A stretch of DNA of 64,000 nt, taken from Gammaproteobacteria bacterium (GTDB lineage Bacteria; Pseudomonadota; Gammaproteobacteria; Natronospirales; JAIVGZ01). This document shows, in pieces, positions 1 to 15,522 of the stretch (positions within the stretch are counted from its first letter, which is position 1; every line of letters starts with the position of its first letter). The position numbers were made by a program, and so were the translations under genes. The DNA is taken from NCBI GenBank assembly GCA_040882865.1, contig JBBEAN010000014.1, forward strand, positions 26,565-90,564. The letters run 5' to 3'. Under the pieces are notes generated by a model, which was not told the origin of the DNA, searched no databases, and saw only the letters and a list, made by a program, of their open reading frames with translations.

Positions 1-2
1 AC

Positions 3-593
3 GCATTACGAGACGTCCTCACACGCGCACGCGACGCCGGCATCCAGGTCTGGACCCACGCCATCGGCGACCGCGCAAACCGCATGATCCTCGACCTCTA
101 CGAAGAAGTCCTAACCGACTCAAATGTAGGAGCGGCGCCTTCGCGCCGCGATCATAGATGGCGCATCGAACACGCCCAACACCTCACCGCCGAAGACATC
201 CCACGATTCGCAGAACTCGGCGTCATTGCATCTATGCAACCGAGCCATGCAATTGGCGACTTGCACTTCGCACCGGCGCGCCTTGGCTTGGAGCGGCTTC
301 AATATGCGTACGCGTGGCGGAGCCTGCTGAATGCTGGCGCGATTATCGCGGGTGGGAGCGATGCGCCGGTTGAGGTCGGTGACCCCTGCATCGAACTGCA
401 CGCGGCGACAACTCGTTCGGATCTTGATGGGCACGTTGCACCGGGTTGGCATCCGAAACAGGCCCTTGCATTAAGGCATGCCATAAAGATGTTCACGCAA
501 AATGCGGCACATGCCTCATTTCTCAAGCGTTCAAGGAGCATGATCAGATTAGGCACTCGCGCGAACAAATATGCGATTTCGACGAGGCACTAA
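3..593 (+). CDS. Amidohydrolase family-3 (YtcJ-like metal-dependent hydrolase); 5' end off-window, C-terminus apparently truncated and degenerate
   Basis: Open from the window start in the frame of ORF 84-593. Motifs THAIGDRA, DHRWRIEHAQ, GVIASMQPSH and GGSDAPVE fit the family. It ends about 30 aa short of family members, after a degenerate G-x-x-AD-like segment (LGTRANKYAIS). A REP2 copy lies in frame at 125-152. Confidence 0.8.
   Translation, partial: ALRDVLTRARDAGIQVWTHAIGDRANRMILDLYEEVLTDSNVGAAPSRRDHRWRIEHAQHLTAEDIPRFAELGVIASMQPSHAIGDLHFAPARLGLERLQYAYAWRSLLNAGAIIAGGSDAPVEVGDPCIELHAATTRSDLDGHVAPGWHPKQALALRHAIKMFTQNAAHASFLKRSRSMIRLGTRANKYAISTRH
125..152 (-). repeat. REP2 palindromic repeat unit (inverted orientation) embedded in frame in the amidohydrolase CDS
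   Basis: TGTAGGAGCGGCGCCTTCGCGCCGCGAT differs by 1 nt from the copies at 46731-46758 and from the reverse complements of 30215-, 34957- and 46677-. It is translated as NVGAAPSRRD. Confidence 0.8.
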
Positions 594-594
594 T

Positions 595-1653
595 ATGACG
601 GAGCGCCTAATTCTTCACTCTTCTGCGCGCACTGTCAGATACCGACAGGATATCCGTCGTGTAATAAGTATGCCGGCCGGGGCGCGACTCCGATTTCGAT
701 ACCGAAAGAAGCATATCGCTGCAGGAATATATGCAGAAATCGAAAAGGAACGTCTCAATAATGTAAATGCATTGGTGTGCTTCCTTGCAGATGAACCTGC
801 AGGGAGCGTTCTATCCGTTCCATGTAGATTCGTTCGGATTGAGCGAGCGTACGTGGTCGGCGGTGAAGTATGCGTGTTTGATCTGGCACTCGGTGCCTTC
901 GCAGATGCTCCCATGACATTCTCCAGAGATGTACAGTCGGCATGCCCTAGGTTTCCAGGATCGCTTCAGATACCTAAACCGGACGAATTATTCGTCGACA
1001 AACTGCCGGCGGAGATCGAGAACGTCGTAGAGGCGAGCGATGAAATAGAATCATGGATAGCAGTAGTGCGCCAACTAGCTGAACGTGTAGCGTTCCAAGA
1101 TGAGCAGGCCTTTTATTATGTACGCGGATTAAGATCTCCAGAAAAATCGGAACTTAAGCTGTGCAAGAACGACGCACTTGAAGTGATCGGGGGCGCGGAT
1201 TACGAACTTTCGATTATCCACTTTTCGCCGTCGACCAAGCCCGTCCGTTCGGACGATGTGGTATGGCTGATGTTTGAGGCACGGGATAGCGAGATCACCT
1301 TCATCTCTTATCCTCGCCTACGTCTCGATTCGGCGTATGACGAAAAGCTTGTGCGTTTCTGTGTGCCTCCGGTAGACGTTACTAAATCATCAGTAATTAC
1401 CTTACTTGAGGGGGCTGGTCCGCCGTCCAAGCCTGTGATCGCGGACGGTTTCCACCATTTTGACATTCGCGTGACTGTGAAGCCGCGCCAATTGCTAAGG
1501 TGGGTTAAGGTAATTTTGCTTGCCGGGCTTATCTCCGCTCAAAGCCTCGCTACAAGTGAGTGGGTTCCGGATACTTTAAGACTTGTCTCAATCTTTGCGT
1601 CCGCGGTCATAATCGCCGTTGTCGCAGTGTTCGGCATACGGAAGGCTGTTTAG
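595..1653 (+). CDS. Unknown protein with C-terminal double transmembrane anchor; first gene of the Druantia-like operon
   Basis: ATG 595 is preceded by GAGG (584-587). 352 aa with no domain I can assign. Two C-terminal hydrophobic helices (VKVILLAGLISAQSLA; LVSIFASAVIIAVVAVFGI). An 11-nt gap separates it from the next ORF. Confidence 0.75.
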   Translation: MTERLILHSSARTVRYRQDIRRVISMPAGARLRFRYRKKHIAAGIYAEIEKERLNNVNALVCFLADEPAGSVLSVPCRFVRIERAYVVGGEVCVFDLALGAFADAPMTFSRDVQSACPRFPGSLQIPKPDELFVDKLPAEIENVVEASDEIESWIAVVRQLAERVAFQDEQAFYYVRGLRSPEKSELKLCKNDALEVIGGADYELSIIHFSPSTKPVRSDDVVWLMFEARDSEITFISYPRLRLDSAYDEKLVRFCVPPVDVTKSSVITLLEGAGPPSKPVIADGFHHFDIRVTVKPRQLLRWVKVILLAGLISAQSLATSEWVPDTLRLVSIFASAVIIAVVAVFGIRKAV

Positions 1654-1664
1654 CTCAATAAATC

Positions 1665-2156
1665 GTGAAAACAGACAAAATACTCAGTGAATTGTGTGCG
1701 ATCAGGCGAAGACTAGATTCCGCGTTTAGTCAGGCATCCGCATATCCAACGGTGAACGCGCTTGCGGTCGGCAGTGCAGGCCAGTGCGGGGCCACCGCGT
1801 TACTCATCCAACATTTATTTGGGGGCGATCTCGTTAGTACAAATATCGGAAAGGATAGCCACTGGTATAACCGACTTAATGTGGAAGGAACGCAAATTGA
1901 TGTTGATATCACTGGGGATCAGTACGGTTACGAACCCGTAAGGGTGGGGCCGGTCGGGACCCTTTTTAGGCAAAGCCGGATCCGATCAACTTCGGAGGTT
2001 CAATCGGAAACTCGCATTCGAGCAGCCGTGCTTGCGAGGAATTCTGGCTTTCCCTTTCCAGACGGTAGCCATTCAACAGAGCGCGGGCTTGACGAAATGA
2101 CGGCCGGTCGAATCAACCAAACGGGGAGAGCCAATGGGCCGGAAAATGAAGGCTGA
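1665..2156 (+). CDS. Small Cys-His-Asp protein, YunG-like/papain-fold-like (tentative)
   Basis: GTG start, 163 aa. GQCGATALLIQHLFGG ... SHWYNRL ... IDVDITGDQYG recalls the YunG-type pattern, from memory and unverified. The 3' end overlaps the druA-like start by 23 nt. Confidence 0.6.
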   Translation: MKTDKILSELCAIRRRLDSAFSQASAYPTVNALAVGSAGQCGATALLIQHLFGGDLVSTNIGKDSHWYNRLNVEGTQIDVDITGDQYGYEPVRVGPVGTLFRQSRIRSTSEVQSETRIRAAVLARNSGFPFPDGSHSTERGLDEMTAGRINQTGRANGPENEG

Positions 2157-3345
2157 TATCGCGAAGGTTAATTTCCGAATTGCTTCGCTTAAACGCAAGC
2201 TCAGACGACACCTTAAGGCGCTGGGATTTACTAAATCTGATGATGGTTCGCTTCAGATAAATGGGAGTGGAAAAGAAATAATTCGTGCGCTGCATAGTGC
2301 GCAAAGAAATGAAAAACTCGACCAGGCGTCAGCGCTCATTTCAAAGCGCAGTTCCGAACTCGCGAAGTTTTTCGCCAATGGCAGCGACGTTGACCCTCAG
2401 AACATTCAACCGGTACTAGAGCGCGTGAAGTCGGGTACGGTGGAATCGGAACTCTTCCGACTAGCGTCGCTTACCTGGTCCGTTCCGGTATCGAATGGCT
2501 TCGGACGCCGCATGCGCTATCTTGTGTGGGACGGATACAATGAGAAACTCATTGGCCTCATCGCAATCGGTGATCCAGTTTTTAATCTTTCGGCGCGCGA
2601 CAAGCTTATTGGATGGAACCCACAGGCTCGCGCCGAACGCCTGGTCAATGTTATGGATGCGTACGTTTTGGGTGCCGTGCCCCCCTATAATTTTCTGCTG
2701 GGCGGAAAATTGGTCGCGTGTTTGGTGAGAAGCCGCGATGTATATGATGATTTTACTCGTGCCTACGGCAACACGACAGGGATTATCTCCGAGCAAAAAA
2801 AGAAAGCAAGATTGCTCGCGGTTATGACGTCATCTTCGATGGGGCGGTCATCAATTTATAACCGCCTGAAGTTGGGTGACACTCAATACTTCGAGAGCCT
2901 CGGGTATACCGGGGGATGGGGCCACTTCCATATTCCGGACAGAATTTTTATGGACCTACGTGATTTTCTGCGCGAAATCGACCATCCGTACGCAGACTTT
3001 CATCAGTTCGGGCAAGGGCCGAATTGGCGGATGCGCACAACCCGCGCCGCATTAGGTGCTCTGGGATTCAAGAGCGATATGCTACGACACGGCGTGAAGC
3101 GAGAGGTCTTTTATTGCAAATTGGCATCGAATGCCACCGAGATTCTCCGGACCGGCCGCGGGCGACCAAATTTGAAGACGTTGATGAGCGCCGAAGAGGT
3201 AGGGGCGCAGGCTGTAGCGCGCTGGATGTTGCCCCGGTCAGTCCGTAGACCAGAGTATCTAGAGTGGACACGCGAGGAAATGTTCTCGCTACTTGGTCGA
3301 CGACGCGTAGTGTCATTCACCCAGGCAGTCGCGTCGCACGAGTGA
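2134..3345 (+). CDS. druA: DruA-like protein (DUF4338-type)
   Basis: 403 aa. The motif string GFGRRMRYLVWD ... RDKLIGW ... PPYNFLLGGKL ... MTSSSMGRSSIYNRL ... GYTGGWGHF matches the DUF4338 pattern. GGAGAG lies upstream of ATG 2134; ATG 2146 is an alternative start. It sits in an operon with a DruE-like helicase. Confidence 0.8.
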   Translation: MGRKMKADIAKVNFRIASLKRKLRRHLKALGFTKSDDGSLQINGSGKEIIRALHSAQRNEKLDQASALISKRSSELAKFFANGSDVDPQNIQPVLERVKSGTVESELFRLASLTWSVPVSNGFGRRMRYLVWDGYNEKLIGLIAIGDPVFNLSARDKLIGWNPQARAERLVNVMDAYVLGAVPPYNFLLGGKLVACLVRSRDVYDDFTRAYGNTTGIISEQKKKARLLAVMTSSSMGRSSIYNRLKLGDTQYFESLGYTGGWGHFHIPDRIFMDLRDFLREIDHPYADFHQFGQGPNWRMRTTRAALGALGFKSDMLRHGVKREVFYCKLASNATEILRTGRGRPNLKTLMSAEEVGAQAVARWMLPRSVRRPEYLEWTREEMFSLLGRRRVVSFTQAVASHE

Positions 3346-6212
3346 GCGAAGTCCGTTCAAGCGGGCAGGAAGAAGCTGCGCGAGGGCGAACGCTCGCCGA
3401 CTGGTCGCAATATCTTGCGCAGCATTTCAGCACCCTAGCGCAATCGCGGGCCCAAATTGGTACGCCTATTTTTGTACTCGAGCACGGTCTCAACAACGAC
3501 GAATTAGTTGAGATAAGCGAGAAGCTTCTCCAAGGAATACGGCTTAGGCATCCGTTTGACCAAAACTGGTTACCGTGGATCGTGTACGCAACGGAAAGGG
3601 GATACAGCTACGAAGGGGACGAATACTGGCATTCGTTCGAGGAGAAGACCGTCGGGTGGGATAGCGCAGACAGATATAGAGTAACCCAGTGGTTCAGTAA
3701 GTTCTGCGATGAATATAACGGATTCATTCCATCGGGCCCTTGGGCCAGGCATTTCAGCATCATCGCGGGTCCGATCACACACGCAATTTTGCCGCGCTAT
3801 CTCCAGTTGCAGTTTGCGCGAGCACTTTACAATCTTCGATTTCGCCTCCCAACGGTTGCCGAGTCTGGAGCAACCGAGGTTGGCCAGTGGTTCGCTGCGA
3901 ACGTAGAGCATCCGACGACTAGATTCAGTCAGTTTCTCCAGCAAGAAGAGTTAACCGGGAGAATTATTCTTGCGTTACTCGGCGGGGAGCCGGTAGAGGG
4001 AGAGGAGCGAATATATCCCTCAACTTTACAACGGATAGTTTCCGATCTCGACCAAGTACAAAGTGCGCGGACATGGCTGAGCGAAACTAGACGCGTCGTT
4101 TCGAGTCGCGAACGAGCGACAAAACAATTAAACCCAACATCTCATCCCAGGCGGACGCCTTCCCAGTCGAGCCTACGCGAGGCGCTAGATATTCGTCCGC
4201 AGATTGTGCTGCGATACGCGGGTGACGATGCGTGGGATGCCATACTCCGCGTTCCGTCGTTTCATGCGCTCGCAGCTTTAGACGGCGAAGTGCAGTCGTT
4301 CTTGCGCCGTACTCGGTGCAAGTTGAATGGCGTCGACGGTTTGAAACCGGCAGGTTGGGTTTTGAGTGGCCCTCGACACGCCTTGCTCAAGGAGTGGCCG
4401 AACTCGAAGTTGCCACTGGTGGACTTTGAAAGCGGATTGACGTCTCTGGATTATCTTCTACAGTCAAAGTGCAGCTTTCAGCGGACCGAGCCCCTGCTTT
4501 TTCGCCTGAGCAAGGATGGCAACGCGCGACAGGTAAGTGGTACGTCGGTTCGAAGCGGCTCGGAGTATGTTGTGGTGAGTTCAAGCGAAGTGCCAGACGG
4601 CGAGCTGATATCGGACGCGCGGTTGAGCTGCACGGGAGTGAACGCCTTTAAAATCACAGTCCCCGATTTGGTTTCGGATGAGAGTCGCTTGCAGCTCGAA
4701 GCACTCGGTCTGACGGTGGCACGCACGGTGCAAATTTGGCCTGCAGGGCTTCCCTCCAGAAGTTGGTGTGAATCGGGTCGGAGCGAGTGGAGCACGACCG
4801 AAACGCCATGCTTTGGAGTGACGTCAAACTTCAATGTCAATCGATACTTGGTCAAGCTCGACGACGGCGAAGAGTCGAGCATCGTTCCTGAAGGGGATCG
4901 TAAAGCGACCTTCCTCATGTTACCCGCCCTTTCTTCCGGAGAATATGTCCTCTCGATTACTGCCCACGATGATCAAGCCAATGACTCGGTGACAGGAGAG
5001 ATTGCGGTTAACGTTTACGAGCCGGTTCATTGGTCGCCTGGCACGCTCCAGAGCCAAGCGCTATTGATAAGCGTGGAACCGGTAGATGCGGATCTTGATG
5101 CGCTTTGGCGAAACGAGCTTGAGGTGTCTGTGGTTGGCCCCCAAAGTCACACCGCAAGTTTTTCCGTTGCTTTGCAGAATGCCGCCGGCGCGGAGATCTT
5201 CTCCGAAGCTGTCGGGAAATCGGTATCGCTTCCAGTTGCTTCTGATACTTGGACAAGTATGTTTGAGAGATTTCTAAACCGTGAGGATTTTTGCTGGCGG
5301 TATTTGGAGGCGGCGACCGGCAGTCTTCGTGTGCAGGCGGATGAGTTAGGAACCTTTTACGCGCATTTCCAACATGACGTGTCCCCTGTTCGCTTTTCCT
5401 TACGGCGCCATAAGGACGGGATTATTTTGAGGCTAGTCGATGAGACGGGCATAGATGATCAGTTACCGAACGCGCGCGTATACCGAATGGAACAGCCGGC
5501 GGAGGCCGTTGAACTGGCGGTGAATGATCTTCGCCGCGGGCTCGTTGTCGACCCACCTGGCGGGCTTTTTACTGTAGAGCATGGCAATTATCGCGATTCA
5601 ATTTTAGTCAGTTCTGGTTTGGCCGGCAGTGGACTTCAAGGGCTAGGTATAACGCCGACCGTCGAACTGTCGGATGCGGCCTTGGCGCTGACCTTCAGTA
5701 ATGTTTCGTGCTGGCTCAACGCGAGGAGTGTGGGAATGCTTGCTGGCGTCCGCCGTCGGCAGATCACTCGCGAGTTACTCCGATACTTTTACGCTAGCAT
5801 TTGTGGGTCGAACTGGGAGCGTAGAGAGGATGCATTTCTACGCGACGTAAAGTCATCCAGGGTCAAAGATCAGCTGGAGCGGGCTGTATGCAAAACCTTA
5901 AGCTTCGCTATCATTCTAAGTCGGAATTTCGCAAAGATAGCAGCCGACCCGAAGTCTTCGGGGGGGTGGTATTCAGAGCTAGCGAGAAGCTTTGGGCTTG
6001 CCTCATCAGAAACGGATTGTGAGTTTGCACTGATGCTTGCTTCGAGTCCTCAGTTGATTGCGGATAAATACCGAAACGAGATCGACGCCCGATTGGATTG
6101 GCTTCAGAACAATCCAGCGATTTTCCGTGGAGCAAGGTTGGTCTCGTTACTCAGTGCTAACGCCGAAGTTAAGGACGGGGTGAAGTTTTTACCGGCGTGG
6201 AAATGGAAATAA
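3342..6212 (+). CDS. Large protein of unknown function at the DruB/DruC position
   Basis: GTG 3342 overlaps the druA stop (GTGA). 956 aa with no assignable motif. The track start at 3264 is probably an over-extension into druA. Confidence 0.7.
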   Translation: MSEVRSSGQEEAARGRTLADWSQYLAQHFSTLAQSRAQIGTPIFVLEHGLNNDELVEISEKLLQGIRLRHPFDQNWLPWIVYATERGYSYEGDEYWHSFEEKTVGWDSADRYRVTQWFSKFCDEYNGFIPSGPWARHFSIIAGPITHAILPRYLQLQFARALYNLRFRLPTVAESGATEVGQWFAANVEHPTTRFSQFLQQEELTGRIILALLGGEPVEGEERIYPSTLQRIVSDLDQVQSARTWLSETRRVVSSRERATKQLNPTSHPRRTPSQSSLREALDIRPQIVLRYAGDDAWDAILRVPSFHALAALDGEVQSFLRRTRCKLNGVDGLKPAGWVLSGPRHALLKEWPNSKLPLVDFESGLTSLDYLLQSKCSFQRTEPLLFRLSKDGNARQVSGTSVRSGSEYVVVSSSEVPDGELISDARLSCTGVNAFKITVPDLVSDESRLQLEALGLTVARTVQIWPAGLPSRSWCESGRSEWSTTETPCFGVTSNFNVNRYLVKLDDGEESSIVPEGDRKATFLMLPALSSGEYVLSITAHDDQANDSVTGEIAVNVYEPVHWSPGTLQSQALLISVEPVDADLDALWRNELEVSVVGPQSHTASFSVALQNAAGAEIFSEAVGKSVSLPVASDTWTSMFERFLNREDFCWRYLEAATGSLRVQADELGTFYAHFQHDVSPVRFSLRRHKDGIILRLVDETGIDDQLPNARVYRMEQPAEAVELAVNDLRRGLVVDPPGGLFTVEHGNYRDSILVSSGLAGSGLQGLGITPTVELSDAALALTFSNVSCWLNARSVGMLAGVRRRQITRELLRYFYASICGSNWERREDAFLRDVKSSRVKDQLERAVCKTLSFAIILSRNFAKIAADPKSSGGWYSELARSFGLASSETDCEFALMLASSPQLIADKYRNEIDARLDWLQNNPAIFRGARLVSLLSANAEVKDGVKFLPAWKWK

Positions 6213-7273
6213 AAAAAGCGCCGCCCAACGAAATCATCGCGGCGTGTAGGTCAGCGTTCGGCCTGTCACGCCGAGATGATGTGGATGACATACTTTTAAC
6301 CGAAATGGCAAGGCGCAGTGCTGGATTCCATTGTCCATGCTCCCGGACCACGTTGCGAGCCTCTCTTGAGGAATCTCTCCAGCTTCTCTGCGATATCGAC
6401 GTCGAACAAATCGACAGCGCTATTGAACGTCTTGTTGTCGGCGGTGATCTTCTAGAATTACGAGATGTAATCACCACAGACGGTGCCACGAATGGAACGT
6501 GGGTTTACTCTGCCCCACCTACGTTCGTAGTTCGCCCGAGCGGGAGTATCTTTCTTACAGGCGTTGTACCCAACCAATCAACATTTCTCCCGCCCCCCCT
6601 TTCAAGTCGAGTTGTTTCGGATGGTTACACACGTGTGCTCAAAGAAAACGACCGTGAAGATCTTTCCGAAGAGTTGCTCGCTCATGGATTTCAGGCGCTT
6701 CCGGAGAGTATTTGGTTACGCGCGCCTAAGGCCGTCCCTGCGCAGAAGCTAGTTGACGAGCACTTGGTTCACCTCGGCCTTCAAAATCCCTGCGGAGCTG
6801 TCGGTGATATAGAGCTCATCGATACAAGCCATCCAGTACGGTTTTATCGTGGTCGATGGGTGCAGCCAGTCGACCAGACAGGAATGTTCGTCGCCCGCAG
6901 AAAGCAACGATACGGTGCGGCGCTTTGGTGCGTCGTTGAGGTCATTAGAGGAGAGCCGTTGAAGCTGTTTGATTTGCCAAAGGGTCACAGTCGATGGCGC
7001 GGTTGCGACGAAGCATGGAGACTTCAAATGGCGATAGACAGTTGCGCTAATTCACCGCAGGAGTACCAATATCGGGAGATGACGGATGGGGTTCGGCTGG
7101 ATTTCTTTTCGCCATTGCCGCAATGGGCCGTACGACGACTCATGATCTTTGGCGAACCGATCGCTTCAAAAAATTCACTTTTCTCATACTTGTTGCCGCC
7201 ATCTGAAGCCTCTGCGGAACACAAATATTTGCAGGAACGACTTTGGTTGCGTGGAGTTTGTAATTCGAATTAG
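6197..7273 (+). CDS. Protein of unknown function at the DruD position
   Basis: GTG 6197 or ATG 6203 overlaps the upstream stop (6210-6212). 358 aa with no recognisable domain. Its TAG stop lies within the RBS of the next gene. Confidence 0.7.
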   Translation: MEMEIKKAPPNEIIAACRSAFGLSRRDDVDDILLTEMARRSAGFHCPCSRTTLRASLEESLQLLCDIDVEQIDSAIERLVVGGDLLELRDVITTDGATNGTWVYSAPPTFVVRPSGSIFLTGVVPNQSTFLPPPLSSRVVSDGYTRVLKENDREDLSEELLAHGFQALPESIWLRAPKAVPAQKLVDEHLVHLGLQNPCGAVGDIELIDTSHPVRFYRGRWVQPVDQTGMFVARRKQRYGAALWCVVEVIRGEPLKLFDLPKGHSRWRGCDEAWRLQMAIDSCANSPQEYQYREMTDGVRLDFFSPLPQWAVRRLMIFGEPIASKNSLFSYLLPPSEASAEHKYLQERLWLRGVCNSN

Positions 7274-7280
7274 GAGATAT

Positions 7281-10200
7281 ATGCAAACCATTCATATGGC
7301 GGTCAGGCAATTGCGACTCGCACTCATGGAGTATATAGAGGCGACCTATCACATCAGTTCACCAGCGCTGATTGCCCAGCGGAAGGCATTGCTTAACAGT
7401 CCAGGCGTAATCTTTCAAATTCCGTATCTTGAATCCACGCCTCGTTATAAGGCTGGCGCGACATTTTCTGAACTTGGTGGATTACCGCCAGCTGCTCTGA
7501 AAGTCTTTGAGGCCCTTTCGAGTACTACGGGCGGAGTACCGCGCCTCCTGTACGATCCACCATACCTGCATCAGGCGCAGACGTTACAACACAGCCTTTC
7601 CGAAAAATCCAACGTTGTAATAATGACCGGAACAGGATCTGGTAAAACCGAGTCATTTCTCATGCCTATACTAGGTAAACTTGCAAACGAGGCTGCCACT
7701 AAGCCGACGAGCTTTGCTGGTCAGCCGGCCGTTCGAGCTCTAGTTCTATATCCCATGAATGCTTTAGTTAACGACCAACTTGGTCGTCTTCGAGGGCTAT
7801 TCGGTGACGCGCGTGTCCGAGATCTTTTCATGGGCTGGGCAGGTAGGCCACCGCGATTCGCGAGGTATACAAGCCGGACTCCGTATGCCGGGGTCCGGGT
7901 AGCCTCGAAAGACACAACCAAGCTTGCGGCGTTCGAAAAATTCTATGCCGGCATTCAGAGATTAATTACGGATGGCGACGACGCTGAGAAGCAGCGAGCG
8001 AAACGACTCCTTGCCGAGCTTCAGCAACGTGGAAAGTGGCCGGCTAAACCAGACATCGCTGCTTGGTACGGCGAAAAAGGTAGTAGGTGGCAGGATCCGC
8101 AGACAGGTGATTTTCGTAGAGCGATAACGCTGCCGGACGACTCCGAGTTGGTGACTCGTCACGAAGTGCAGGCGGCACCGCCAGATCTACTGGTTACAAA
8201 CTATTCAATGCTTGAGTACATGTTGATGCGTCCCGTGGAACGTCCAATCTTTGATGCCACTTGTGATTGGCTTAGAAGTAATCCCGACGAGCGATTCTTA
8301 GTCGTACTTGACGAGGCGCATCTGTATCGTGGTGCGGCCGGAGCAGAAGTGGGCTTGCTGTTAAGACGACTTCGAGATCGACTTGGAGCAACGGACAGTC
8401 AGTTTCAAGTAATCTGCGCCACGGCGAGCTTTTCGAATCCAGAAAGTGCGCGCAGGTTCGGCGCTCAGCTCTCTGGATTGCCGGAGAATACATTTGTTTC
8501 AATAACTGGGACGTTACATCTCGCGAGCGAAGATGGAACAGGAGGGCAGTCAGATATCGATGCACTCAGAACCATAGAGCTAGAAAAGTTCTACGAAGCG
8601 AATACAGATAAGGAGAAACTTGGAGCTATCCGTGAGTTTCTTCAATATCGCGGAGTCGAGGTTATTGACGCGCCAGAGTCAACCCTGTTTCGTGCGCTCT
8701 GTGATTTTGCGCCACTGAAGCTGCTCATTAATTCAACCATGAAGGAAGCGATGCCCATTGCGTCGCTGGCAGAGATAATCTTCCCGGGCGCCTCTCAACC
8801 GGAAGCGGATCAAGCGCTGACCGCGCTACTCGCGTTGGGTAGTGTAGCGCGTCCAAACAAGCAATCCTCCGGACTATTGCCCTGCCGGATTCATAATTTC
8901 TTCAGAGGCCTACCAGGTCTTTGGATTTGTCTGGATACTGATTGCTCCGAAGTTTCCGCAGAGAATAAAAACGCAATTGGAGGTCAGCTATTTAGTCAGC
9001 CTCGTACACGATGTCGGTGCGGGGCACGCGTGTTCGAGTTGTTCACCTGTCGGAACTGCGGAACGGCGTATGCGCGAGCTTATACGGATGATGTCGACTC
9101 ACCTCGGGCACTATGGGCAGAGCCGGGTGAGCACCTCTTTATGGGCGACGATGATACACGCTCGTTGTTCCCGATTGACCTGCTGCTTGAGTCGCCATTG
9201 GATGAGTTGGCAGAACCGGTCGATCTGGATGTGGAGACCGGACGCCTCAATCCAAACGTTTTGGGTCCGAGAACGCGAACGGTCTTCCTTCGTGGCGTTC
9301 GTACATCCGACGTCAACGAGGACGGCCAGCCACGATCGAAATTTGAAGAGCGGGGGAAATTCAATCCTTGTGGCGTGTGCGGAAAGACCGCCGGCTATGG
9401 CCGATCCCCGGTCCAAGACCACCAAACTAAGGGCGATGAACCATTTCAAGCGCTAGTTGCACGGCAACTGCAAATTCAACCGCCTAGCTCCCCAAGACCT
9501 ACGCAATTTGCACCGCTGCAAGGCAGGAAAGTATTAGCATTCTCAGATTCGAGACAGGTGGCTGCGCGTCTTGCTCCAAAGCTTCAAACACTTTCCGTCC
9601 GTGATTCATTGCGTCCGTTAATCGCCTGGGGGTTTCGGAAGCTTCAAGGTTCGGAAAGGATCCTCCCCAACCTGAACCTGGATGATCTTTACCTTGCAGT
9701 GTTGCTGGCCTCCAACGAACTCGGTGTGCGGTTGCGTCCGGAGATGAAAGCGTCTGAGAGTTTCGAGGCGGAAGAGATGGTGGGTAAGGCCGTCCGCGAT
9801 GCCGTAACCAACACGCGCGAAGGATTACTGCAGGTTTGGATGGATGTACGTGGCGAAAGGCCACCTGAAGCGCTATTAGACAGTATCGTAACTGCGGTAC
9901 GAGATAAATATCTCGGATTCGAGGCGTTGGCACTCGGTTCTATTGTGGAGAGGCGGCGGCACTCTGAAGAAATCGCTGGGTTGCCGGACATAGTAGGGAT
10001 TGCGGAGAACCCATCCGAGAAAAGCGAACTTGTCCGCGCGTGGATTAGATGTTGGAGTAATAAAGGATTTTGGCTGAATGGCATGCCCGGCCAATGGTGG
10101 CGTGAAAAAGTTCAAGGCGATAGTGGGAAATTTCCGAAAGCTATGTCGCTTATCATCCGAGATACGAAGGCGCGCGCAGAGTTCGCTAAGGTGTGGCTAC

Positions 10201-12794
10201 CTATATTGCTCTCTCGATTTACGAAAGACATGAGCGGAATCCGGCAACTTAGCGGGAGCGAGCTATCACTGCAATTCGACGGCTATTGGGTCCAATGTGC
10301 AATCTGCAAGTCAGTGCATCGACCTATGAGGCGCGTTGCGCACTGTATCGATTGTGGACGTGACGCTATCCGCCAGCTTGATCCGGACGTGGATGCGGTG
10401 TTTCTGGCGCGAAAGGGGTTCTATAGGAATCCAGTCCTGGCTTCATTGGCGAATCCTCCAGCGAAGCCTATGGCGCTAATCGCCGCGGAGCACACCGCGC
10501 AGCTAAATGCCCCGCAAAGCGAGGACGTTTTTTCCAAGGCGGAGGAGAACGAACTCCTTTTCCAGGATGTCGATATAAGTGGAATATCAGACGGACGCGG
10601 GGCAACTGCAGTGGATGTCCTTTCGAGCACCACAACAATGGAAGTTGGTATCGATATCGGAGAGTTGTCGGGCGTTGCGCTTCGGAATATGCCGCCAGGT
10701 CGATCGAACTATCAACAACGAGCGGGCCGGGCGGGACGCCGAGGTAGCGCGGTAGCTACCGTTGTCGCATTCGGGAGCGCGGATAGCCACGACGAGCACT
10801 TCTTTTCCACCCCCGCGCTTATGATTACGGGACCGGTCATAGACCCCAAATTAACGCTATCTAATATTGAGATCGTGCGTCGTCATATTAGAGCGTTCCT
10901 GCTTCAGAATTATCACCAATCGAGGATACAAGGTACCGACAGGAACCTATCGCATGATCTCTTTTCGGTACTCGGAACCGTTTCCGGTTTTAGGGATCGA
11001 GAGTCGCTTTTGAATCGGCATGATTTTGCGGGTTGGCTGAGTGAAAATGAGAGCAGACTCCGACTGCGCGTCGACAGTTGGATACCGCACGAACTTGCAG
11101 CGGCGGATCGCGCAGGTCTATTGGATGAGATGCGTACTGACTGTCTAACCGCGATAGATCAAGCCATTGATTATGTAGAACCTGAAAACGTCGACACCCC
11201 TTCGGAGCCCCACGACAATGACGAACCAGATTCCGAAAACGAGGAGGACACTTCTGTAGCGGGGCGCGGGTCCGATCAACTGCTTGGCAGGCTGCTTTAC
11301 CGCGGTATTTTGCCCCGATACGCTTTCCCCACTGATGTTGCGACATTCCACGTTTTTGACGTTAACCGATCTTCGCGGTTCAAGGCAGTAATGCGTTTTG
11401 TGCCGTCGCAAGGCCTTCCAGTCGCCCTGTCTCAGTACGCCCCCGGAAAGCAGGTATGGATAGCGGGAAAGTGCTATACGTCCGGTGCGATTTATTCGAC
11501 TATGCCTAGTGACAGGTTTAGTGCATGGCAAGACCGACGAATATATATGGAATGTAGCGCCTGCGGGTTCGCTAGGACATATCTTGTCGAGGAGGCGAAT
11601 AGAGGTGAAATTAAGGACTGCGAGGCCTGCGGAGGGATGGGGACATTTGGACCAGCTCGTTATTGGCTTCGGCCTCCCGGCTTTGCGCATCCGGTCGATG
11701 TAGAGGAGGTTACATCACCAGAAACGATGCCCGATGTGAGCTACGCAACTCGTGCAAAGTTAACGATGCCGACGCCGGATGATGGTGGGAGGTGGACCAG
11801 GCTGAACGACCGCCTCCGCACGCTTAGTGTGAGACAGCATTTACTGGTTTCAAATACGGGCCCAGATGACGAAGGTTACACATACTGCGTGAAGTGCGGC
11901 CGGATCGAGTCGAGTGTCGAACGTGATCCGAAAATTCTTGGAGGTCACCGCAAACCGTATCCTTCTTCAGAGAGCGAAAGGGTTTGCGACGGAGTGACGC
12001 CTTCAAAACACCTAGTCCTCGGGACGGATTTTATAACCGATATCGCGTTGTTCTCCTTGCGTGTAGCTACACCCTTAAAGCTGAGACCAGGTCACTCGTC
12101 GACGATAGTGGCACTCCGCACGTTAAGTGAGGCAGTCGCGCAGGCCGCCTGTCTGCTTCTCGAAGTTGAGGCAGGCGAATTGCTGGCAGAGTTCCGACCT
12201 GCGCTGACGCCAGATGGAAAAGAGGGGCTAGAAGCCGAGATATTTCTGTACGACGCGTTACCCGGCGGTGCGGGATTTTCCACTCAAGTCGCCGCTCGTG
12301 GAATTGAGCTTCTCCAGGGGGCGTTACATCTAATGAAAACCTGCCCGGAAAATTGTGATGCATCCTGCTATCGATGTCTTAGAAGTTTCAAAAATAAGTT
12401 TGAGCATCGACTTCTGGATCGGCATGTGGGCGCTCAGCTACTCGAGTACCTCCTCGATGGCAATCCAACCGAGTTCAGCGAGGAGCGCGTTCAAGAGTCT
12501 ACTTCGTTACTTTTCGCAGATCTCCAACGCATGGGAGCGTCCATACAATTTTCGCGCGACGCTGGGATTTCGGAGTCCGGTGTCATAGCCCCCATCTTGG
12601 CTAAGCGCGCTGATGACGAAGTCTGCATTGTGGCACTTTCCGCCCCTCTCACCACCGATTACCCTGCCGACCGACTAATAGCGCGATATTCCGAGAATGG
12701 CGGTGCCATTCCGGTGCTCGTTGTCAATGAACTCACGGTCCGTGCGAACCTTCCGGCAGCAACTAGACAAGTCCTAGCGCAACTCGGTGAATAA
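7281..12794 (+). CDS. druE: DruE-like giant SF2 helicase with multiple zinc ribbons and a C-terminal DUF1998-type domain
   Basis: AGGAGA (7272-7277) precedes ATG 7281. 1837 aa. Motifs: GTGSGKT (7629-7649), DEAH (8310-8321), QQRAGRAGRRG (10713-10745), CPENCDASCYRC (12342-12377). The track start at 7149 lies inside the upstream gene. Confidence 0.85.
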   Translation: MQTIHMAVRQLRLALMEYIEATYHISSPALIAQRKALLNSPGVIFQIPYLESTPRYKAGATFSELGGLPPAALKVFEALSSTTGGVPRLLYDPPYLHQAQTLQHSLSEKSNVVIMTGTGSGKTESFLMPILGKLANEAATKPTSFAGQPAVRALVLYPMNALVNDQLGRLRGLFGDARVRDLFMGWAGRPPRFARYTSRTPYAGVRVASKDTTKLAAFEKFYAGIQRLITDGDDAEKQRAKRLLAELQQRGKWPAKPDIAAWYGEKGSRWQDPQTGDFRRAITLPDDSELVTRHEVQAAPPDLLVTNYSMLEYMLMRPVERPIFDATCDWLRSNPDERFLVVLDEAHLYRGAAGAEVGLLLRRLRDRLGATDSQFQVICATASFSNPESARRFGAQLSGLPENTFVSITGTLHLASEDGTGGQSDIDALRTIELEKFYEANTDKEKLGAIREFLQYRGVEVIDAPESTLFRALCDFAPLKLLINSTMKEAMPIASLAEIIFPGASQPEADQALTALLALGSVARPNKQSSGLLPCRIHNFFRGLPGLWICLDTDCSEVSAENKNAIGGQLFSQPRTRCRCGARVFELFTCRNCGTAYARAYTDDVDSPRALWAEPGEHLFMGDDDTRSLFPIDLLLESPLDELAEPVDLDVETGRLNPNVLGPRTRTVFLRGVRTSDVNEDGQPRSKFEERGKFNPCGVCGKTAGYGRSPVQDHQTKGDEPFQALVARQLQIQPPSSPRPTQFAPLQGRKVLAFSDSRQVAARLAPKLQTLSVRDSLRPLIAWGFRKLQGSERILPNLNLDDLYLAVLLASNELGVRLRPEMKASESFEAEEMVGKAVRDAVTNTREGLLQVWMDVRGERPPEALLDSIVTAVRDKYLGFEALALGSIVERRRHSEEIAGLPDIVGIAENPSEKSELVRAWIRCWSNKGFWLNGMPGQWWREKVQGDSGKFPKAMSLIIRDTKARAEFAKVWLPILLSRFTKDMSGIRQLSGSELSLQFDGYWVQCAICKSVHRPMRRVAHCIDCGRDAIRQLDPDVDAVFLARKGFYRNPVLASLANPPAKPMALIAAEHTAQLNAPQSEDVFSKAEENELLFQDVDISGISDGRGATAVDVLSSTTTMEVGIDIGELSGVALRNMPPGRSNYQQRAGRAGRRGSAVATVVAFGSADSHDEHFFSTPALMITGPVIDPKLTLSNIEIVRRHIRAFLLQNYHQSRIQGTDRNLSHDLFSVLGTVSGFRDRESLLNRHDFAGWLSENESRLRLRVDSWIPHELAAADRAGLLDEMRTDCLTAIDQAIDYVEPENVDTPSEPHDNDEPDSENEEDTSVAGRGSDQLLGRLLYRGILPRYAFPTDVATFHVFDVNRSSRFKAVMRFVPSQGLPVALSQYAPGKQVWIAGKCYTSGAIYSTMPSDRFSAWQDRRIYMECSACGFARTYLVEEANRGEIKDCEACGGMGTFGPARYWLRPPGFAHPVDVEEVTSPETMPDVSYATRAKLTMPTPDDGGRWTRLNDRLRTLSVRQHLLVSNTGPDDEGYTYCVKCGRIESSVERDPKILGGHRKPYPSSESERVCDGVTPSKHLVLGTDFITDIALFSLRVATPLKLRPGHSSTIVALRTLSEAVAQAACLLLEVEAGELLAEFRPALTPDGKEGLEAEIFLYDALPGGAGFSTQVAARGIELLQGALHLMKTCPENCDASCYRCLRSFKNKFEHRLLDRHVGAQLLEYLLDGNPTEFSEERVQESTSLLFADLQRMGASIQFSRDAGISESGVIAPILAKRADDEVCIVALSAPLTTDYPADRLIARYSENGGAIPVLVVNELTVRANLPAATRQVLAQLGE

Positions 12795-12873
12795 GAAAGG
12801 AGAACTTGATCGATTCTGGCGCGGTACCGATCCATAATCACAAATTATGAGTTCAATCACGGGACTCGTCGCG

Positions 12874-13815
12874 TTACTGCGCCAAAAATAGGGAGTAACG
12901 CTCTTCAAGCCGCTCTGTATTTGGTTGATGTTCTTTCAGCTTTGGAACTTCAATCGCCTTGCCATGCATTTCTTTCAAGGCATGCTGTAGGACTGGCCCG
13001 TCAAATTCAGTTAATAGATCTCGGCGAATATGCACGGTACAGTCCGGGCGAATTCCCAAGAAGAGTTTGTCGAATGCGGCATGGTGGATCTTGCATAACG
13101 CCAAGCCATTAGAAATCACCGGCTCTCCCGAAGCTTCTCTATCTTCCGTTATATGGGCGGCATCCAACAACTGAGGATGCCTAAGGCGACAAAGCGCGCA
13201 CTGCGTTCGATAGGCGCGAATTACTCGAAACCGAAATGCCTGTTGGTGGGCTCTAACCCTGACCTGTGCAGTTCGATATTGCCTCCTAATTTCACCATAC
13301 TCCGTAAAGTAGTCGGGAGGTAACTCTGTGTTGCTAGCCCAATAATCCGATACATTGCGATCTTCAGCGCGGACAGTGAAGCGGAGATTATTCGGCTCGT
13401 CGCCGATCACAAAGACGGGCCAGGTCGCCAGATACTGACCTGGAACGATGCCGTGGAGGTAAATTAGCGGTAGTTGTAGGCGCATGAGCTCACGCAAACC
13501 GCAGTTTTCACGATGGCTGGGGTCGGTACCCCGGTATCGATAAAGCAGGGTTTTATCGTCGATGAAGCCGTCGTCGTAAGGTCCGTTCGGAGACGTAGTA
13601 ATCGTTAGTGGCAAGTCGCTATCGGTCGCTGCAGGAATAAAGATTCCTTGTGGTCCGACAAGAGGTACCCGGGCGCCCTGTAGATCAAATCCTCGGGCTA
13701 GAACAGCTCGTGGAAGGACAAGCGCTTCGGCGTTATCGATCCCTGCAGTTAAACGCAAAGACTCAAGCCAAGCGAAGGCCTCTTTACGTACTACGTGGTC
13801 AGGTATTCGCGACAT
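12874..13815 (-). CDS. HNH endonuclease with N-terminal PUA/SRA-like domain; probable type IV (modification-dependent) restriction enzyme
   Basis: 313 aa. C-terminal CALCRLRHPQLLDAAHI ... NGLALCKIHHAAFD is an HNH motif. The N-terminal LLYRYRGTDPSHRENCGLRELM...PLIYLHG resembles the Y-x-Y-x-G ... N-x-x-L pattern of SRA-HNH enzymes (COG3440-like). No methyltransferase nearby. Confidence 0.65.
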   Translation of the reverse strand: MSRIPDHVVRKEAFAWLESLRLTAGIDNAEALVLPRAVLARGFDLQGARVPLVGPQGIFIPAATDSDLPLTITTSPNGPYDDGFIDDKTLLYRYRGTDPSHRENCGLRELMRLQLPLIYLHGIVPGQYLATWPVFVIGDEPNNLRFTVRAEDRNVSDYWASNTELPPDYFTEYGEIRRQYRTAQVRVRAHQQAFRFRVIRAYRTQCALCRLRHPQLLDAAHITEDREASGEPVISNGLALCKIHHAAFDKLFLGIRPDCTVHIRRDLLTEFDGPVLQHALKEMHGKAIEVPKLKEHQPNTERLEERYSLFLAQ

Positions 13816-13936
13816 GATTGAATCGCCCCCTCTCGATCAAGTCTAGACCAAATCTACATCTCGAGAGACACCTACCTATGGCGGGTAGGTATCAATTTGG
13901 CGCGTAGTGCGGGCTAGGGCTTAGGTTGAACTTAGA

Positions 13937-14845
13937 TCAACCTTGCCACGGCCCGCCGGGGGGCCACGTTCCAATCGCTTTTCCGTCGCGCACAGCATCG
14001 AATATCGGCATGGCGAATGCGCTAATCGAGCTGGTCACGTTTTCGAGAGATTGCTGAGGTAAGCGGTTTCGCGCCAAGAATGCGGTCCATTGCGTCTGCT
14101 TCGAGCGGTCGGACGCAAATCCATCCGTGAACGCGTCGGGCACCTCGGTCGGGACCGCGGTGTTCCGGCGTTTGAAGGTCGCGTGAACTTGGGCGACGAG
14201 CCGCTCACCGCTGAACTGATGGCACTGTGCGAGCATCGCAATGTCAAAAAAGTCCTTCATGCGGGTATTTGCCATGCCGAACGCTACGATGATCTGGAGT
14301 TTCTCGGCGACGCTCGTTTCTGGATGGTACGCGCGTAGTCGCGCTGTGGGCTGATCGAGTAGCGTCGGAATCTGCGCCCACTCGGGCTCCAAGGCGATAG
14401 CATCGCCAATTCCAACGTCGACCTGCAAATGTAGACGAGCGTTGCCGAGGAATCCGACAAACGTGACGCGCCGACCGCCGTACGTGTCGCTCTCACGAAT
14501 ATCGGCGACTTCAACCGTGTCGACGTCGTAGCGCATGCCATCCGGCTTGGCTTCGACCCCACACACTTCCCGGAACATCTTCACAATTGTGTCGTCGGTG
14601 AGGTCGCCATAGCCGAGCAAATCAGCGTCGCGGGTTGGGCGGGCCTCCTGCCCGAGCCAGACAAGCATCATCAATGCCCCCTTGAGAACGAACTGTTCGC
14701 GGAAGCGGGATTCGCTCAGTCGGTACAGGAATCGTTCAAGCGCATAGCGTCCGAGAAGGCGGTTATGCTCCTGGCCTGTGGCCTTCGCCAGGTTTAGTAA
14801 GCGCGCTTGAATCGATGCCGGCAGGCCGTCGTTTGGGTTCGTCAC
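13937..14845 (-). CDS. abiEii: AbiEii/AbiGii-family nucleotidyltransferase toxin (DUF1814)
   Basis: 302 aa. Typical family N-terminus (LLNLAK...ERFLYRL...FVLKGA...RPTRDADLL). The GTG start overlaps the abiEi stop (GTGA). Confidence 0.85.
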   Translation of the reverse strand: MTNPNDGLPASIQARLLNLAKATGQEHNRLLGRYALERFLYRLSESRFREQFVLKGALMMLVWLGQEARPTRDADLLGYGDLTDDTIVKMFREVCGVEAKPDGMRYDVDTVEVADIRESDTYGGRRVTFVGFLGNARLHLQVDVGIGDAIALEPEWAQIPTLLDQPTARLRAYHPETSVAEKLQIIVAFGMANTRMKDFFDIAMLAQCHQFSGERLVAQVHATFKRRNTAVPTEVPDAFTDGFASDRSKQTQWTAFLARNRLPQQSLENVTSSISAFAMPIFDAVRDGKAIGTWPPGGPWQG

Positions 14846-15447
14846 GCGACGAGCGCCTCGAGGTAGGGGCGCATCACGCGTGCCACACGGTTGATTCTCG
14901 CGTGCCGCTCGAGTTCATTCATCGCGAATAGGCGCTTCGTCCACGCCTCATTCAGCGCCTCGAGTGTGACGTCGAGACCGATCTTGTTGCGGTACTTGAA
15001 GCAGTCCGCGATCGTCTTCGCGACCCCATAAACTTGGATTGCGCGTCCGCCCACCACGTGGATTTCGACTCCGGTGGAGAATGCCGGCTCAGAGACAAAC
15101 ATCACCCGTAGTGGTGGGTAGGCGAGCTTCGGCCGGCGCCGGCCCCGTGGGAGGGCCAGCCAGACCTGGGATGGAAGCTGCGTCGTGAGCTGGTGGAATG
15201 CGAGGGCGGAAAGCAGGCAGATGACTCCGTCGGGCACCCCCGTCGCAACTTGGACAAGCGAGCCGTCGGCAGAAATCCGAGCCCCGGGCAGCGTATACAC
15301 GCCCCGGCCGTGCCGCTCCAGCAGACCGATCCGAGCCAGGCGCGAGAGGTACTCCCGGGGGAGTCCCCGAGCCTCCAGATCGGACGCGCGTAGCGCGCCG
15401 AACCGTCTGGCCAGATTGAGGATTTCTTGCGTCGATGGATGTTCCAT
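14842..15447 (-). CDS. abiEi: AbiEi-family antitoxin / transcriptional regulator (type IV TA)
   Basis: Start taken at ATG 15447 (MEHPSTQEILNLARR...). Has a wHTH-like N-terminus and an AbiEi C-terminal domain. Directly upstream of and overlapping abiEii. Confidence 0.8.
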   Translation of the reverse strand: MEHPSTQEILNLARRFGALRASDLEARGLPREYLSRLARIGLLERHGRGVYTLPGARISADGSLVQVATGVPDGVICLLSALAFHQLTTQLPSQVWLALPRGRRRPKLAYPPLRVMFVSEPAFSTGVEIHVVGGRAIQVYGVAKTIADCFKYRNKIGLDVTLEALNEAWTKRLFAMNELERHARINRVARVMRPYLEALVA

Positions 15448-15458
15448 AAAGGTGAATC

Positions 15459-15522
15459 TGTCACAAAATGCAATCATAAGTCAATATCTGTATGCGATAT
15501 GTGACAAAAGTCAACCGTGTAT
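15459..15522. promoter_or_regulatory. Repeat-containing divergent promoter/operator region upstream of abiEi
   Basis: TGTCACAAAA (15459-15468) and TGTGACAAAA (15500-15509). AAGTCAATATCTGTAT (15478-15493) and AAGTCAACCGTGTAT (15508-15522). On the abiEi strand these read as two TTGACTT boxes. AT-rich. Confidence 0.4.

Follow-up and report, generated by a model that had tools for sequence, protein, structure and literature searches.

A widespread four-gene variant of Druantia type I with a large, possibly DruH-like protein in place of DruB and DruC

We analysed a 64,000-nucleotide stretch of DNA from a member of the Gammaproteobacteria (assembly GCA_040882865.1, contig JBBEAN010000014.1, positions 26,565 to 90,564; hereafter the window), which carries genes of the Druantia defence system close to its start. 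Between its druA and druE genes lie two others, coding for proteins of 956 and 358 amino acids (aa). The smaller is DruD, and the larger, which we call X, belongs to an unannotated family. The two genes form the middle of a four-gene operon, druA-X-druD-druE, which represents a widespread variant of Druantia type I, and we lean towards a reading in which X is a DruH-like sensor or scaffold.

Druantia type I reportedly consists of DruA-DruB-DruC-DruD-DruE (Doron et al., 2018). The window shares with it DruA, DruD (as recognized by PADLOC) and a DruE of the DruE1 type, in the same order, on the same strand and with the same tight coupling. In contrast, DruB and DruC are absent, and one apparently unrelated 956-aa protein stands in their place. 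We know of no established role for any of DruA-D.

Organization and conservation of the operon

Exactly two open reading frames (ORFs), both on the forward strand, separate druA from druE (Table 1), and they are coupled to their neighbours, as a sequence-only reading of the window had described. The stop codon of druA overlaps the GTG start of X (GTGA at 3342-3345), and this GTG is the sole in-frame start codon ahead of the conserved region of X. The stop codon of X (TAA, 6210-6212) is overlapped in turn by the start of the druD ORF, whether this is GTG 6197 or ATG 6203. The druD stop codon (TAG, 7271-7273) is followed by AGGAG and then by the druE ATG at 7281, leaving a gap of 7 nucleotides between the two genes. 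No convincing promoter or terminator was found inside the operon, where matches were fewer than in shuffled sequence.

The same arrangement recurs in many bacteria. A scan with a DruD alignment, taking one genome per species, found 153 genomes; the best 80 loci were kept and their neighbouring genes were identified by tblastn. X lies directly upstream of druD in all 75 informative loci (72 intact, three cut by insertions), druE lies downstream of druD in 76 of 77, and X is immediately preceded by a short druA in 64 of 72. When loci were sampled from X instead, all six had the order X-druD-druE. The X stop codon and the druD start codon overlap by 4 bp in many loci. Hosts of the four-gene loci belong to the Alpha-, Gamma- and Deltaproteobacteria, Acidobacteriota, Binatia, Spirochaetia, Sphingobacteriales (Bacteroidota), Dehalococcoidia (Chloroflexota) and Armatimonadota. 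X is an obligate, vertically conserved and translationally coupled member of this operon. A predominance of its homologues outside Druantia-like contexts would have told against the sequence-only reading; in fact the context is essentially always druA-X-druD-druE.

DruA, DruD and DruE of the window

The three remaining proteins all match PADLOC models. DruA corresponds to DruA1 (PDLC00002, E-value 1e-200) and to Pfam PF14236 (E 1e-83); its DUF4338 domain has been assigned to the GNAT fold (PMC10853773). DruE corresponds to DruE1 (PDLC00013, 1970 bits, 1776 of 1776 profile positions) and contains the Pfam domains DEAD, Helicase_C and MZB.

Canonical five-gene systems, which served as controls, were reached by tblastn of DruA in Ralstonia solanacearum UW163 pUW163a and Pseudomonas putida pKF715A (L084 11986-23472 and L085 11995-23354); a DNA search with druE for the canonical system in E. 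coli genomes gave no match. PADLOC confirmed the middle genes of these controls as DruB (PDLC00005, E 1e-200 or lower), DruC (PDLC00006) and DruD (PDLC00009). The DruA of the window is 64-65% identical to that of the canonical systems, but its DruE is only 32-34% identical to the canonical one, against ~60% identity with DruE from other four-gene loci. The two systems therefore differ by more than one swapped module.

The sequence-only reading had taken both middle proteins as unknown while noting that the smaller was DruD-sized. For the 358-aa product the second remark was the right one: it matches DruD1 (PDLC00010, E 5e-120) over residues 3-352, aligned to positions 1-352 of the 359 in the profile, as well as a further DruD model (PDLC00012, E 4e-109), and by these profile matches it is a full-length DruD. 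Because the PADLOC profile and the homologues begin at the methionine of ATG 6203, a protein of 356 aa is likelier than one of 358 aa, and druD probably starts at that codon. PADLOC holds four DruD models. The canonical DruD from Ralstonia cross-matches PDLC00010 only at E 2.3e-5 and over ~130 residues, so the DruD of the window would belong to a distinct and distant subfamily (PDLC00010/12, as opposed to PDLC00009). Comparison by hhalign of a four-sequence DruD alignment with the Ralstonia DruD sequence gave an E-value of 0.015, and tblastn found no canonical DruD. The DruD of the window has no relative in Pfam, NCBIfam or the PDB. With DruA conserved, DruE diverged and DruD barely recognizable, the comparison suggests modules with different histories, which points to shuffling rather than simple divergence.

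The X family and its predicted structure

For the 956-aa protein, the label unknown was apt as far as databases go. Neither X as a whole nor three fragments of it matched any PADLOC, Pfam or NCBIfam model at E<=10, ten other members of the family had no match in PADLOC, and a search of PDB sequences with an X profile returned nothing meaningful. The family is large. Clustering at 90% identity gives more than 1,142 clusters, whose proteins all measure 940-960 aa and are all labelled 'hypothetical'. At 50% identity there are 1,500 representatives with E<=1e-3, and 786 of them reach 1e-30; members of the ~1,500 clusters are 28-55% identical across their full length.

An AlphaFold2 model of X, built from 117 homologues (mean predicted local distance difference test score, pLDDT, 83; predicted template modelling score 0.50), divides the protein into a helical N-terminal domain, a beta-rich middle and a helical C-terminal domain (Table 1), with residues 262-279 predicted to be a disordered linker. 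The N-terminal stretch beginning with FVLEHGL, which had already looked conserved by eye, does hold invariant residues of the family (E47, H48, W76, L77, E85, G87, Y88, Y90, G92, E94, W96); H28, H147, R166, R194 and Q201 are also invariant in this domain, and W791, R795, R804, W825, G930 and R932 in the C-terminal part. The middle of X, suspected to be rich in beta structure from its sequence, is so in the model. Its first beta domains contain near-invariant cysteines at positions 377, 426, 430 and 490; these could form a metal site, and Zn2+ has been reported to enhance DNA binding by DruH.

Searched against the PDB with Foldseek, the X model retrieved only tandem beta-sandwich arrays, at TM-scores of 0.1-0.15: complement C3/C5, TEP1, CD109, alpha2-macroglobulin, gp130, the OSM receptor, IFNAR1, the fibronectin type III (Fn3) domains of Dscam, and ICAM-1. 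The N-terminal domain modelled alone (pLDDT 75) had no fold match in the PDB by the same method (best E 0.54). No signal peptide or membrane segment was found in X, which would therefore be a cytoplasmic protein with an array of immunoglobulin-like (Ig) domains.

Table 1. Genes of the operon and predicted domains of X (positions within the window)
Feature	Position	Strand	Description
druA	2134-3345	+	403 aa; DUF4338, GNAT-like; gene 1 of the conserved four-gene unit
X	3342-6212	+	956 aa; unannotated family; occupies the DruB+DruC slot
X, N-terminal all-helical domain (predicted)	3342-4127	+	residues 1-262; most conserved part; contains FVLEHGL and YATERGYSYEGDEYW
X, beta-rich middle (predicted)	4194-5621	+	residues 285-760; ~4 beta-sandwich or Ig/Fn3-like domains (DSSP of the model)
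X, C-terminal helical domain (predicted)	5679-6161	+	residues 780-940; conserved LRGAR motif; pLDDT 85-95
druD	6203-7273 (ATG, 356 aa) or 6197-7273 (GTG, 358 aa)	+	PADLOC DruD1
druE	7281-12794	+	1837 aa; YprA/MrfA-type helicase with MZB/DUF1998 domain

Comparison of X with DruH of Druantia type III

In Druantia type III, DruH is the only partner of DruE, and cryo-electron microscopy structures are available from two preprints of 2026 (10.64898/2026.05.12.722862; 10.64898/2026.05.13.724758). DruH is made up of six Ig-like subdomains set between a globular N-terminal domain and a C-terminal domain (CTD), the latter in contact with the former; single-stranded DNA (ssDNA) is bound at the interface of Ig5 and the CTD, with ATP as a competitor, and the N-terminal domain is essential yet has no known fold or activity (10.64898/2026.05.12.722862). 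Its ten domains have also been described as a circular arrangement of Fn3-like and Ig-like folds, the nearest being CD148, IL-6R, IL-27 and ICAM-3 (10.64898/2026.05.13.724758). DruH is portrayed as a non-catalytic, ssDNA-binding Ig-array protein and is thought to be a sensor or scaffold (10.64898/2026.05.12.722862; 10.64898/2026.05.13.724758). In type III, DruE has 3'-to-5' helicase activity and loads on exposed ssDNA or 3' overhangs.

X resembles DruH (STY4851/ECs_5259; PDB 9tud) in several respects. Both are large, cytoplasmic proteins without a catalytic motif, encoded upstream of druE, and in both (for X, as predicted) a globular N-terminal domain, the best conserved part, is followed by an Ig/Fn3-like chain and a C-terminal domain. 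Set against the published descriptions of DruH, the AlphaFold model of X follows the same three-part plan, and its fold neighbours are of the same kinds. The differences lie in size (1,096-1,155 aa for DruH versus ~950 aa for X, which has fewer beta domains), in operon layout (type III is a two-gene druH-druE operon, whereas in the window X follows druA and has druD between itself and druE) and in the DruE partner. The latter is of type 1 for X, a class reported to carry an inactivated Vsr domain (Bell et al., 2025), and of type 3, with PLD domains, for DruH.

The DruH sequences used for comparison came from one E. coli chromosome (PADLOC DruH3, E = 0), from seven plasmids and from 78 metagenome loci. 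In their N-terminal domains, X and DruH can be aligned colinearly from about residue 10 of each over ~210 columns, for example PIFVLEHGLNNDELVEISEKLL with PLYEYHATNDEYTQLTQLL, and YATER..Y...W with FCSEW.RR.Y...W. In hhalign this alignment scores 28-29 (E 0.003-0.004, Prob 8-10%), against 15-17 for the reversed control, a score reached by none of 60 column-permuted nulls (z 4.2-4.4).

Several results weigh against a DruH-like X. The hhalign probability stayed at only 8-10%, and deepening the alignments to 85 X and 32 DruH representatives left the score no higher. Against DruH, neither the middle nor the C-terminal part of X gave a signal, and whole-length comparison was also within the range of the reversed controls. 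HMMER searches between the X and DruH N-terminal domains gave E ~0.5-2 in both directions, as did reversed controls. None of 13 PADLOC DruH models or the NCBIfam STY4851/ECs_5259 models matched X; E. coli DruH, by comparison, matched 11 DruH models. The DruH structure 9tud was not among the top 50 Foldseek matches of either X model, with its presence in the fold library (cut-off 8 April 2026) unconfirmed and its presence in the PDB sequence copy confirmed. X is also shorter than DruH by ~150 aa, it is separated from druE by druD, and a layout of helical domain, Ig array and helical domain could arise independently.

The residues through which DruH is published to bind ssDNA and ATP (Y670, N672, H689, Y733, R1031, H1062, R1064, K1067) all match a 1119-aa DruH from a Klebsiella plasmid (L092 3965-7321), which has the same length as the 9tud chain, and are unmatched in the 1096-aa DruH of E. 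coli (L086 6056-9343). These residues are not conserved across DruH subfamilies, and mapping them onto X was dropped for this reason.

A DruH-like protein was one of the identities that the sequence-only reading had proposed for X. The predicted architecture lends it support, the hhalign signal is marginal, and the HMMER comparison adds nothing. We regard kinship of X with DruH as no more than plausible, the likeness of architecture in the model being the stronger argument.

Possible function of X

An X that works like DruH would be cytoplasmic and non-catalytic and consist of a helical head, an Ig/Fn3-like chain and a helical tail. It may sense or hold phage DNA intermediates, such as ssDNA that is exposed or produced by the 3'-to-5' helicase DruE. 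Alternatively, it may bind a phage or host protein, or scaffold its partner proteins. DruD would probably be a stoichiometric partner of X and its link to DruE, and DruA, with its GNAT fold, might add a modifying activity. Expression of type I Druantia has been linked to altered N6-methyladenine (m6A), without a known methylase. By analogy with type III, we give roughly even chances to X taking the role of DruH with DruD as stoichiometric adaptor to DruE.

A more far-reaching version holds that X and DruH are truly, if very distantly, homologous, that the four-gene form bridges types I and III and is the commonest, and that DruB and DruC are a lineage-restricted replacement. We put this forward tentatively, as a possibility that falls somewhat short of an even chance. 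Were it correct, a DruH-kind Ig-array sensor would be the partner of DruE in both of these types, the DruB-DruC module would be found mainly in Pseudomonas, Ralstonia and enterobacteria, and the four-gene form would be the commonest DruA-bearing Druantia in nature.

X may instead have been recruited independently and be unrelated to DruB, DruC and DruH, its His/Glu-rich N-terminal domain being an enzyme or ligand-binding module that, for instance, modifies or senses a phage component. Such an origin would fit the lack of any PDB fold match (best E 0.54) or family match for this domain, whose invariant polar residues (H28, E47, H48, E85, E94, H147, R166, R194, Q201) resemble a site rather than a scaffold, and all similarity of X to DruH or DruB does lie in the twilight zone. 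We nevertheless judge it unlikely, given that X is like DruH in its three-part layout, its size class and its partnership with DruE, and that the colinear alignment of the N-terminal domains over ~210 columns scores above every permuted null. Moreover, the N-terminal domain of DruH also lacks a known fold or activity and yet is essential, so a conserved site in X is no argument against kinship.

Comparison of X with DruB and DruC

We also considered that X could be a strongly diverged DruB, or a fusion of DruB and DruC, the operon then being a compacted form of canonical type I; a fusion was another suggestion of the sequence-only reading. The 956 aa of X are close to the combined length of DruB and DruC (~558 + 625 aa), and X directly follows druA, as DruB does, in the same slot and alongside a closely related DruA (64% identity). 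In the family, DruB has 477-558 aa with an N-terminal CoiA_N zinc ribbon (Pfam; CxxC...H...C) and comprises 74 clusters at 90% identity; DruC has ~625 aa, with coiled-coil matches in its centre (residues 150-330), and comprises 144 clusters at 90% identity.

The PADLOC DruB and DruC models found nothing at E<=10 in X, whole or in fragments, nor did the DruB model in any ORF of the operon, and the ten relatives of X were likewise without a match. Whole-length hhalign gave Prob 1.5% for X versus DruB, with reversed controls equal or higher, and 0.1% for X versus DruC, which is below the reversed control; every part of X was null against DruC. X has no zinc ribbon (no Pfam CoiA_N match, and an all-helical N-terminus in the AlphaFold model) and no coiled coil in that model. 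A DruB-DruC fusion was accordingly rejected, and over its whole length X shows no detectable relationship to either protein.

One local signal stands apart. Residues 285-470 of X align with residues 77-265 of DruB at E 0.004-0.008 (z 3.0-3.5 against column-permuted nulls), with three motifs in the same order and the invariant C377 of X opposite the invariant C163 of DruB. This alignment could be taken to favour a diverged DruB; the rest of DruB has no match in X, and the two could have one beta domain in common at most. We treat it as a lead, possibly to one shared beta domain, and not as evidence for fusion. Descent of X from DruB, with or without DruC, seems improbable to us.

A reading of X as a passenger or an artefact of annotation rather than a working part of the system, for which nothing positive speaks beyond the absence of a recognized domain, is effectively refuted by the conservation of X (28-55% identity over the full length in ~1,500 clusters) and by its synteny (a constant place between druA and druD, its start and stop codons overlapping those of these neighbours). 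The AlphaFold model, a confident one, also favours a folded protein.

Significance

In the literature that we searched, we found no description of the four-gene variant or of the X family; DruB, DruC and DruD appear only as unknown proteins of the five-gene system. PADLOC already has DruD models for this clade and none for X, and thus sees three of the four genes of these loci, as a result of which counts of Druantia types may be skewed. Type I Druantia provides phage protection that is among the broadest measured.

The DruB-DruC pair is dispensable in evolution, having been swapped for the single protein X, and the view that a replaced middle module would be informative stands. The four-gene variant appears far commoner and more widely spread (at least seven phyla) than DruB and DruC, with the caveat that clusters were counted at differing identity (50% for X, 90% for DruB and DruC) and that these figures are not directly comparable; at 90% identity for both, DruB is far rarer than X (74 versus more than 1,142 clusters). 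If X is DruH-like, what has been learned of DruH and DruE (binding of ssDNA and its competition by ATP, loading of the helicase on 3' overhangs) would provide hypotheses for type I, and the minimal core would shrink to DruA, DruD and DruE with an Ig-array partner. What makes the four-gene form interesting is its abundance, the annotation gap that it reveals and the possibility that it bridges types I and III.

Sub-variants, decayed copies and related layouts

Some loci lack the short druA upstream of X (L083 7047-20623, L178 477-18841, and also L073, L075, L076 and L079). They have a long DruA of 674-677 aa on the opposite strand, with DUF4338 in its C-terminal half, and a gene for a STAND-like NTPase or a helicase after druE; L178 has in addition two HATPase_c genes and a sigma70_r2-like gene.

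In three genomes (L008, L021, L075), X is interrupted by insertions of 2-2.5 kb. Decayed copies are also present on plasmids of Sinorhizobium medicae (L003 4954-14350, on pMl4), with X truncated at its N-terminus and an IS3 element splitting druE. In a metagenomic locus (L175 11968-17524), the call for DruE falls into two genes, one for a helicase part of 1483 aa and one for an MZB part of 358 aa; such a division is reminiscent of DISARM and could also reflect a frameshift or an assembly error.

Layouts with DUF4338 and DruE and without X or DruD were seen on a Leisingera plasmid (L174 6996-19799) and a Meiothermus plasmid (L173 6240-14065). The former encodes, in order, an ATP-binding protein, a long protein with DUF4338, a DruE of 2094 aa and a NERD protein, and further upstream, past a small gene on the opposite strand, another ATP-binding protein; in the latter, druE is followed by druA. 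Related haloarchaeal plasmid loci were among the tblastn matches.

The genomic island

The Druantia operon lies within an island of ~14 kb at the start of the window, with a G+C content of 52-54% compared with 60-67% in the genome. Within positions 1-15500 of the window, the low-G+C region begins at a truncated amidohydrolase ORF (84-593), which matches positions 299-440 only of Pfam Amidohydro_3. No tRNA was found within the window. Upstream of druA are genes for a 360-aa protein with a hydrophobic tail (571-1653), for which no database match was found, and for a YunG-like protein (1665-2156); both were rejected as members of the system, being absent from other loci. Beyond druE, on the minus strand, the island encodes an HNH endonuclease (12874-13815) and an AbiEii/AbiEi toxin-antitoxin pair (13937-15477). 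An AbiEi/AbiEii pair adjoins the four-gene Druantia not only in the window but also in two of four further loci sampled from X (L176 5191-6670; L177 18116-18820), which may reflect a recurrent association or simply the clustering of genes in defence islands.

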